From a virus (taxonomy: Duplodnaviria > Heunggongvirae > Uroviricota > Caudoviricetes), in IMG/VR virus record IMGVR_UViG_2537561716_000016: a stretch of DNA of 4,375 nucleotides; one strand, 5' to 3'. How positions within the stretch are numbered: position 1 is the stretch's first letter; the number at the start of each line of letters is the position of its first letter. The position numbers are program-made. This document shows, one piece after another, positions 1 to 3,000 of the stretch.

Positions 1-3000
1 TCTCAGTATGTGTCACTGGCCTATACGGAGCGACTAAAAGAAGCCGGATTACTGGCATCAACAGGGAGTACAGGCGACTCGTGACAACGCGATGGCGAGA
101 GCATCAATGGTCTTTACAAAGCGGAGGTAATACACCGTAAGAGCTGGAAAAACCGTGCAGAAGTGGAACTGGCCACACTAACGTGGGTGGACTGGTATAA
201 CAATCGACGATTGCTGGGAAGGCTGGGCCATACTCCTCCGGCAGAAGCAGAAAAAGCTTATTATGCTTCCATCGGAAACGATGATCTGGCAGCCTGAGTT
301 CACAGATAAAACACTCTCCAGGAAACCCGGGGCGGTTCATTAACGCCGGAATAATCCAGTCATTCACTGCACCGCGCCTTGATCACTCCCGCAAGCCGGA
401 TATGGCGCGAGAAAAACTTGTGCAACTTCTTGGCGATGTTCCCCGGATAGAACTGTTCGCCCGTCACACCTCGCATGGATTTGATGTCTGGGGTAACCAA
501 TGCGGAACACCATCCATTGAGATGGTTCCGGGTATTGTTAAATTTCTGGAGAAAACCAATGAGCGAAAAAACGACGTTGACAAAGGCATCACCAGTTGAA
601 TTAAGGCAGTGCCTGGAAATCGCAAATCAACTTGCCAGAAGTGGAATACGCTTTGTTCCGATCCCGATCACAGCAGATACAGAACTTCATCTGTTTGGTG
701 AAATTCTTTCCCGAAAGCTGGATGAACTGGAAAAGCTGGTAGAAGAAGCTGACACCTCACCAATCGCATAACACCCCCACCGACATTAAAATATCAGGAG
801 AAAAAAATGAACGCCGTACTCACAGAATTGAACAAATTAGGAAAAGCAACAGCCGACAGCATTTCTAAAGGTCTCAATATTGATTTGAATGACGTCATTG
901 ATACGCTGTGGAAGTTGAAAAACCAGGGGATCGTAAAGGTAAAAAACGGCATCTGGCAGGCAGTAGAGGGAGTTGGAAGCAAAACAGATATTGATTCAGT
1001 TCAACCAGTTCAACCAGTTCAGCCAGTTCAGCCAGTTCAGCCAGTTCAGCCAGTTCAGAACAACATTATAGGTGACCTGCTACGTAAATCACGGAAAGAA
1101 GCGCGCCGCGCCGGGCGGAAACAGAAACGATGGGAGGGTGCATGTAAGGCGTTGCAAGAACTGAATAAATACCGTGACTTGATCAACGAATTGTCAGAGT
1201 GAACGTAGCGGGAATCCACGTCCTTTAGGGCGTGGATGATATCAGGCTGTTGAAATACATGTAGAAAAGGAGCGCATACTATGGAAGTCAACTTAATGAC
1301 CGAAAAAGAGGTTTCTGATTTGTTACAAAAAAGGCGCACAGCTTTGTATAATTTGCGAAAAAAACACGGATTCCCGGAACCAGTACTTACTCATCCGGCG
1401 CGATATAGTCGTCAGGCCGTTGAACAATGGCTTAAAGCCGGAGGAATTAACCGAGCTGTTTAGCGTGCCAGAAAATTTTATCAGCATACAACTCATACGC
1501 ATCTTTCTGTTCCGACAACCAGTCGTGTTTATTATACACGGCCATAACTCCCCCAAGTTCATGCCCCAGCATTTTTTCAGTGACGTGGGGCATAATTCCT
1601 TCCCCAGATAAATTCGTTACCAGAGAACGCCTAAAATCATGCGTTCTCCATTCAGGAATATCAATTTTCTCCCTTAACTTTTTCATGTACAAATTAGCCG
1701 ACGAACGATCAATAGGTTTATCTATTTCCTGCCCGGGGAATAGCACATCAAAACCCGCATTAAGCAATCTCTCGATATAAGGTTTAACCTGAGTGAATAC
1801 CGGACGCCGGATAATATTCCCCATTTTTGAATGCTCTTTTGGGGTTGTCCAGACCAGATCTTCCATGTTGAACTCACTGGCTGTCGCGAGACGTAGCTCA
1901 GAAAGTCTGGCCCCCCATAGCAATAGCAATTGATGTAACACCTTGTTGGAAGTAACTACTTTTGAGTTCTCCAGCGCCAGCCAAATTTTTGCCAGTTCCG
2001 TATAGGTAAGTACACGACTCCCTACATCTGGTTTTTTCCCAATATTCTTAACACTAAGCTTGAGTAATTCGCATGATGGGATTAACTGGCGGCTGATACA
2101 CCAGTTAATAACTGAACGCAGTTGTAACAACAAAACACGAGCCTTTTTCTTGTTGAGGCTTTCTTGTTTGTCAAAGAAACGAGCCCATGCCGATACTGGG
2201 ATACTGGCAACTGGCGAGCCTTCAAACTGTGTGTACATAGTGTTGTACACGACGGATCTGTAAAGCGTCTGTGTATTGGGTTTCAGATCAGTAACATACT
2301 TATCCCACCACTGATCCAGGCATTCTTTTAATGTCAGTTCGCCGTCACTGGGCGCAAAATAATTTTTAGGGTTAACTCCCTTCATGTACAATGCGCGCAT
2401 CTCACCGACGATAACACGCGCGTCCTTCAGTGAAGTAGACGGATAGCGCCCGACAGTAAGACGTACTGGCTTACCATTCCAGCGATAACGGTACTGAAAC
2501 GTGATAGTTCCTGCTGGAGTAATCCGCACACTTAACCCGTCACCATCGGTGATTTCAGCAGGGCCAGAGTAGGGTTTTCCGTAGAGGCCTCGTAGTTTGG
2601 TGTCGCTCAGTGCCAATGCTTTATATCCTGTACACAAGTTTATAATGTATTCTGTACTCAATATGTACGCATTAGCAAGTGAACAAAACACTTTTCAACG
2701 CAAAAGAAGATAATCAACCATGAACAAAAACAAACTTACACCTTGATTTTAAAACCATAAAGACGGTATTATCAGTCATATGGTGAACAACCAAAATCAA
2801 TACGCAACAATGTCCTCTTAGTTAAATGGATATAACGAGCCCCTCCTAAGGGCTAATTGCAGGTTCGATTCCTGCAGGGGACACCATTTATCAGTTCGCC
2901 TCCATCCGTACCAGTCCGCAAAATCCCCTGAATATCAAGCCTTCCGTAGATTCACAGTTCGTCATGGTTCGCGTCAGATCGTTGACAGCCGCACGCCATG

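Follow-up and report, generated by a model that had tools for sequence, protein, structure and literature searches.

A 4,375-nucleotide stretch of DNA (IMG/VR record IMGVR_UViG_2537561716_000016; in its full length, the window) was found to carry an integrase gene, int, and an excisionase gene, xis, which converge and share their last 17 bp. Judged from its sequence, the window covers the left end of a lambdoid phi24B/PA2-type Shiga toxin (Stx) 2a prophage of Escherichia coli O157:H7 together with the adjoining chromosome, beside argW and intS. We consider that int and xis probably form a recombination cassette whose direction would be set mainly by promoter uncoupling, combined with a conserved dual-coding junction that appears to be under constraint on both protein tails. 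The nearest characterized relative is phage phi24B (vB_EcoP_24B; Fogg et al. 2011, NAR 39:2116, PMC3064807; HM208303), which has the same convergent arrangement.

The int/xis pair and its shared 3' ends

1281-1463, + strand: xis, 60 amino acids, ATG start
1447-2616, - strand: int, 389 amino acids, TTG start
1447-1463: dual-coding overlap, comprising Xis I56-V60 plus stop and Int A385-G389 plus stop
1450-1750, + strand: C-rich, G-poor stretch downstream of the xis stop, untranslated on the + strand (GC skew -0.24 to -0.41)
2617-2700, - strand: int leader and pInt promoter region, transferred from phi24B, the sequence being near-identical
2811-2835: attachment-site core (prophage/host junction), from the PA2 attL annotation

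A preliminary description of this DNA had placed a 17-bp tail-to-tail overlap at 1447-1463, and the stop codons lie exactly as it proposed, with xis ending at TAG 1461-1463 (+ strand) and int at TAA 1449-1447 (- strand). The int stop sits within Xis codons I56-N57, and the xis stop sits within Int codons A385-K386. Gene order was taken from the annotation of a 99.7%-identical chromosome by the Prokaryotic Genome Annotation Pipeline (PGAP) and from that of phage PA2. PGAP annotates both genes with the identical overlap, as does the PA2 record, and the same 17 bp are shared in the GenBank record of phi24B (HM208303), where int occupies 236-1405 and xis 1389-1571.

The int product was identified as a P4-type tyrosine integrase by its Pfam matches to Arm-DNA-bind_3 (62.6 bits, cut-off 27) and Phage_integrase (63.4 bits, cut-off 27.1). 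Residues R237, K264, H326, R329, H352, and Y361 were invariant among 19 relatives, and we take them to fill the catalytic R-K-H-R-H-Y roles. Over its 389 amino acids, Int was 97% identical to phi24B Int. A mechanically called int open reading frame (ORF) of 414 amino acids, starting at GTG 2691, was rejected as too long, the start in GenBank and PGAP being TTG 2616; the TTG start is also found in the phi24B sequence and in its paper (PMC3064807).

The xis gene is preceded by an AAGGAG Shine-Dalgarno sequence at 1267-1272, 8 nt upstream of its ATG. Its product matched Pfam HTH_17 at 28.9 bits (cut-off 27) and PHROG 66, "excisionase and transcriptional regulator" (E value of 2.5e-7), and the profile of the Xis family matched PDB entry 8c3t, "AlpA family phage regulatory protein" (E value of 2.9e-4). 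Phage_AlpA (PF05930) was not reported for Xis at an E value of 0.1 or below in the Pfam search, and no NCBIfam model scored above its cut-off. For phi24B Xis, an HHpred similarity to Phage_AlpA at 5e-6 has been published (PMC3064807). In that study the xis ORF was identified by its position and by HHpred and was placed under pL and CI control, and the activity of Xis was demonstrated: together with Int, it was needed to resolve attL x attR, and it was required for excision (PMC3064807). Since the Xis of the window is 93% identical to this validated protein over 60 amino acids, the earlier proposal of an AlpA/Xis-like gene next to an integrase can be made more specific, namely, that the two are a cognate excisionase/integrase pair. 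By homology, xis encodes an excisionase (recombination directionality factor), probably of the winged-helix AlpA/HTH_17 type. In the published model of phi24B Xis, the last seven residues were not modellable and might touch the neighboring subunit (PMC3064807); these are the residues encoded at and beside the overlap.

Conservation of the junction among relatives

E. coli K-12 contains 75 convergent overlapping gene pairs (PMC4161906), so that one overlap by itself is not beyond chance, and relatives were therefore examined. One genome per species was scanned, yielding 80 loci with Int identities of 41-91%; Xis was searched for by tblastn, and both ORFs were then extended to their stops. The int family proved to be widespread in Enterobacterales and beyond, and all significant Xis homologues lay on the strand opposite int. 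A tail-to-tail overlap was present at 47 of the 80 species-level loci, with lengths of 11 bp (1 locus), 14 bp (4 loci), 17 bp (14 loci), 20 bp (20 loci), and 23 bp (8 loci), all equal to 2 modulo 3, and it persisted down to about 50% Int identity and 32% Xis identity. By this comparison, the conservation of the overlap in one fixed phase exceeds chance. Four int-xis pairs were adjacent without overlapping, the gaps being 2, 17, 25, and 52 bp. Two Shewanella loci whose genes overlap by 4 bp emerged from a hidden Markov model (HMM) search, which also revealed several loci where xis lies 0.8-2.7 kb from int.

The overlap was present in two clades with different integration targets. In clade 1 (Int identity of at least 74%), int is divergent from tRNA-Arg(CCU) at a distance of about 195 bp. 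Clade 2 (Int identity of 50-57%) includes the integrase of Stx2c phage 1717, Sf101, and mEp234, and the RefSeq record of Sf101 shows a 20-bp overlap of the integrase gene with an "AlpA family regulatory protein" gene. At five loci with an Int identity of 74-79% and the same tRNA-Arg context, no Xis homologue was detected within 3 kb downstream; these may be decayed or re-assorted elements. The 52-bp spacer, found in an Enterovibrio metagenome-assembled genome (locus L076, 1415-1468), holds a hairpin with a 10-bp stem followed by TTTTT on the int-sense strand, a naturally "insulated" cassette.

Across the family, the C-terminal pattern is W-[I/L]-x-x-G-G-[V/I]-N-[R/Q]-x-x-stop for Xis, where G54, G55, and N57 never vary, and F-W-H-[V/I/A]-[K/R]-x-[L/I]-x-x-stop for Int, where the same holds for W383 and H384. 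In the relatives as well, the int stop (TAA or TGA) falls within the Xis [V/I]-N codons and the xis stop within the Int [V/I/A]-[K/R] codons, and the overlaps differ in length because of whole-codon insertions and deletions between these two stop-codon anchors. Third-codon-position entropy, compared over 5-7 columns per overlap class, was lower inside the overlap than in the flanks for int (0.88 versus 1.13 in the 17-bp class and 0.71 versus 1.32 in the 20-bp class) and for xis (0.49 versus 1.57 and 0.64 versus 1.49, respectively). Third positions were thus more conserved in the overlap than in the single-coding flanks, suggesting that both frames are selected. In the arrangement we propose, the int stop would lie in the [V/I]-N of the GG[V/I]N tail of Xis and the xis stop in the [V/I/A]-[K/R] that follows W-H in Int; as both proteins would need their tails, purifying selection acting in each frame would hold the junction in place. 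The cassette would also move as a unit, in keeping with the break in homology to phi24B shortly upstream of the xis start. From this comparative evidence we infer that the dual-coding junction is kept by protein-tail constraint and cassette compaction.

Transcription of the cassette and competing explanations

The phi24B int gene runs in the opposite direction to that of lambda and 933W; it is served by a promoter of its own and is active in lysogens, where CI does not repress it (PMC3064807). Its transcription start was mapped by rapid amplification of cDNA ends (5'-RACE) to 46 bp downstream of the first codon of a 1245-bp ORF (PMC3064807). Transferred to the window, where that first codon is GTG 2691, the start lies at about 2645. 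A promoter-like site at 2775-2746 on the - strand was rejected as pInt, being incompatible with this published start. The published control logic of phi24B int and xis is promoter uncoupling, pInt versus pL, and the constitutive expression of int was proposed to explain multiple lysogeny (PMC3064807). This uncoupling was shown in phi24B and is carried over to the window by the 93-97% identity of the two proteins. In the window, xis is the last gene of the early-left operon, reading rightward. The order in the cassette would be attachment core, pInt, int, and, on the other strand, xis. With a promoter of its own beside the attachment site, int would be made continuously in the lysogen, and xis, which closes the early-left (pL) operon repressed by CI, would be made only after induction. 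With int constitutive from pInt and xis dependent on CI-repressed pL, recombination direction would be set mainly by the separation of the two promoters.

RNA sequencing (RNA-seq) of phi24B after norfloxacin induction showed xis up 51-fold and upstream operon genes up 72- to 105-fold, including vb_24B_4c and 3c (105- and 76-fold), the equivalents of the DUF1382 and DUF1627 genes of the window. The change in int was 1.73-fold and not significant (p 0.27). The counts must be strand-specific, since vb_24B_10, which is antisense to genes that rose more than 98-fold, scored only 0.6-fold. Expression of the AlpA-like ORF, on which the preliminary description depended, is thus borne out by its phi24B homologue. 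The same data argue against a strong suppression of int by convergent transcription, since int did not fall while xis and the rest of its operon rose 50- to 105-fold.

The preliminary description had also held that the overlap leaves no room for terminators and that transcription of each gene runs into the other. In two scans of the window, no intrinsic terminator was predicted within 300 nt of either stop. In 44 loci with an overlap, the 300 nt following the int stop contained 11 terminator-like sites, compared with 7.8 expected from shuffled sequences, and the corresponding stretch on the other strand contained 7, compared with 5.8 expected. Intrinsic terminators hidden within the partner gene, being at chance frequency, were therefore rejected. 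Local folding at the junction flanks was unremarkable (+ strand, z of -2.3; - strand, z of 0.07). Two further candidate structures were dismissed: a hairpin over the xis 3' end (about 1416-1470, + strand) reached a z of only -2.3, and its arms were not conserved by eye in aligned relatives; for a conserved int terminator just past xis, the best hairpins across 43 loci differed in place and form, and few had T-runs. The claim about terminators therefore stands for intrinsic terminators but not for Rho-dependent termination, which is possible within the partner gene. The C-rich stretch at 1450-1750 (+ strand) is a possible site for Rho to load on xis transcripts that lack antitermination. In the absence of an intrinsic terminator between or near int and xis, their mRNAs would be complementary at the 3' ends when both genes are on. 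That the transcripts would run into each other is supported by the overlap and by the lack of intrinsic terminators here and in relatives.

Several points weigh against promoter uncoupling with a tail-constrained junction as the explanation. Selection for overlapping transcripts could just as well have preserved the junction, and sequence analysis cannot tell this apart from constraint on the tails; the entropy comparison draws on few columns. The RNA-seq was done in bulk and phage DNA copy number rises on induction, so an unchanged int level could mask a fall per copy. The promoter assignments come from phi24B and not from this strain, where IS1203 sits upstream of xis in the operon, and the 3' complementarity is deduced from the sequence rather than from mapped 3' ends.

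The chief alternative, which we regard as possible but doubtful, is an antisense "safety catch": int transcripts made in the lysogen would run antisense through xis and pair or collide with rare pL-derived xis transcripts. Leaky Xis would be suppressed and the prophage would stay put despite constant Int, until strong N-antiterminated pL transcription overrides the block after induction. This would fit the constitutive transcription of int in phi24B lysogens, the lack of any intrinsic terminator in the 300 nt that follow the window's int stop together with the chance frequency of such sites in 44 relatives, and the retention of convergent orientation and overlap across deep divergence. In phi24B itself, a transcript leaving int would pass the int stop by about 214 nt before its first terminator-like hairpin, which comes shortly after the xis start. 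Antisense control is also known elsewhere in lambdoid phages, as with OOP/cII, paQ, and sib/RNase III. However, the silence of xis is already explained by CI repression of pL, Rho may halt int read-through early, and neither a hairpin nor any 3'-end element beyond xis is conserved in the family. Moreover, int mRNA is not reduced while the convergent transcript rises 50- to 100-fold, and no mention of such a mechanism was found in the literature on phi24B int and xis, where nothing turned up on antisense, interference, or RNA-level coupling at the junction. The phi24B paper lacks the words overlap, convergent, antisense, and terminator (PMC3064807), and the only described phi24B small RNA, 24B_1, maps elsewhere than int/xis. 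An antisense or interference role of the overlap is physically plausible but unsupported. The form of the earlier idea that is still viable, a damping of xis by int transcripts in the lysogen, is possible, though we think it improbable. Within the favored promoter-based reading, any regulatory effect of 3' complementarity would be secondary and asymmetric, with int read-through damping leaky xis and not xis shutting off int. Somewhat less probable again is an excludon-like switch centered on the overlap in the int-xis cassettes of phi24B-type Stx2a phages, Stx2c phages 2851/1717, Sf101, mEp234, and relatives across Enterobacterales. If so, a constitutive int mRNA with an obligatory anti-xis 3' extension would set the Xis threshold, so that lysogeny could be stable and superinfection could recur even though the integrase is always expressed.

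The overlap might instead have no role in expression and serve to keep cognate int and xis inseparable amid lambdoid recombination. The position of all significant Xis homologues opposite int, the mosaic breakpoint directly upstream of xis, and the sharing of the int-xis unit by otherwise different phages (Sepvirinae Stx phages and Lederbergvirus Sf101) are consistent with such linkage. We nevertheless judge it unlikely as the main explanation, since non-overlapping neighbors are nearly as tightly linked, xis lies 0.8-2.7 kb from int at several loci, and the idea is hard to tell from plain compaction. Chance or an annotation artefact, in which the small ORF would be no gene or would actually end before reaching int, might be suggested by the frequency of convergent overlaps in K-12 (PMC4161906) and by an ORF of only 60 codons. 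This is already refuted by the Shine-Dalgarno sequence and above-cut-off Pfam match of xis, by the conservation of homologues up to the stop codon, and by the activity and 51-fold induction of the phi24B homologue.

Known systems and surroundings of the cassette

The module with its inverted integrase and its excisionase has been in the literature since 2011, and database annotation already shows the overlap; the modest addition made here, from comparing sequences, is the family-wide, phase-fixed conservation of the tail-to-tail overlap. Besides protein identity, convergence, the 17-bp overlap, and the TTG start, phi24B shares with the window the attachment core and integration beside argW, upstream of intS. 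It differs in having two extra ORFs and a different hairpin upstream of xis, whereas the window has IS1203 in the methyltransferase gene. In lambda, int is under RNA-level control via sib/RNase III, with the elements pI, tI, and sib. Since int here is inverted with its own promoter, sib-type retroregulation cannot apply. Lambda resembles the window in that its early-left operon ends in xis and its Int and Xis levels are set differentially (PMC2951348), but its int and xis are co-oriented and co-transcribed from pL, and its int is CI-controlled. The SXT/R391 integrative and conjugative elements are alike by published description, xis and int being "two convergent genes" that form no operon and have their own promoters; there, however, both genes are activated by SetCD (PMC4344509). 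The KplE1/CPS-53 element neighboring in the window resembles the cassette in separate transcription, in an int promoter adjoining the attachment site, in its use of argW, and in TorI, which is of the AlpA family. In contrast, torI and intS lie at opposite prophage ends without overlap, and intS is co-oriented with argW and repressed by IntS and TorI. Convergent or antisense switches that link opposed functions through overlapping transcripts include phage 186 pR/pL, lambda PRE/cro, pCF10 prgQ/prgX, and the Listeria "excludons". For these, overlapping transcripts and reciprocal effects were measured, whereas phi24B RNA-seq shows no drop in int.

In O157:H7 lineages of clinical importance, integrases of the phi24B type direct Stx2a phages to argW. 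A brake on xis at the RNA level, if real, would help to explain stable integration with the integrase always present and would offer a handle on the excision of Stx phages. Antiterminated read-through past xis (1281-4205, + strand) would cross int in antisense and then enter argW and intS in sense. Purely as speculation, such read-through could link Stx-phage induction to a rare-codon tRNA and to the CPS-53 integrase.

Complete E. coli chromosomes of the O157:H7 type matched the window at 99-100% identity. Region 300-2810 was matched by 251 phage records, mostly Stx-converting phages, 106 of which cover at least 80% of it. The other features of the window are as follows.

1-297: end of the IS1203 transposase gene (PGAP, phage PA2)
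339-599: distal part of an MT-A70 methyltransferase gene that IS1203 interrupts
559-771, + strand: DUF1382 gene (Pfam, PGAP), co-oriented with xis and in the same operon
807-1202, + strand: DUF1627 gene (Pfam, PGAP), co-oriented with xis and in the same operon
1214-1237: GC-rich hairpin (ATCCACGTCCT / AGGGCGTGGAT) in the interval from the DUF1627 gene to xis, without a T-run on either strand; beyond xis on the int-sense strand
2812-2886, + strand: argW, tRNA-Arg(CCU) (ARAGORN), divergent from int
3049-4205, + strand: intS of the CPS-53/KplE1 element (PGAP)

The IS1203 copy (IS3 family) at 1-337 disrupts the methyltransferase gene at 339-599, about 0.9 kb upstream of xis. It is absent from most relatives, whose homology begins at 338, and in this strain it could exert a polar effect on the expression of xis. 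Within the DUF1627 gene, 6.9 copies of a 9-bp tandem repeat, CAGTTCAGC, occupy 997-1058 (98% matches) and specify a (PVQ)n tract in the protein. The gene measures 405, 396, and 378 nt among close relatives, and these differences suggest that the repeat varies in copy number. The hairpin at 1214-1237 is partly copied, inverted, inside xis at 1359-1376 (78% complementary). At the same position upstream of xis, phi24B has a different, terminator-like hairpin (AACCGCC TTCG GGCGGTT), and homology between the window and phi24B stops about 35 nt upstream of the xis start, marking a mosaic boundary.

The attachment core at 2811-2835 covers the first 24 nt of argW; it is identical to PA2 attL (record bases 1-25) and occurs as its reverse complement at phi24B 18-42. 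Because the core covers this part of argW, the DNA upstream of the tRNA is all phage-derived. A promoter-like site on the + strand (TTGATT-18-TATTAT, 2743-2772) lies in this phage DNA about 40 nt before argW, and the argW promoter is probably supplied by the prophage. The tRNA-Arg gene is divergent from int at about 195 bp in 23 related loci as well; in the scheme of Panis et al. 2010, such a divergent int/tRNA order falls into the rare "OD" class. Past the intS stop, a strong terminator-like hairpin was observed on the - strand at 4231-4261, with a 12-bp stem followed by TTTTTT; it presumably ends a convergent gene of the downstream phage.

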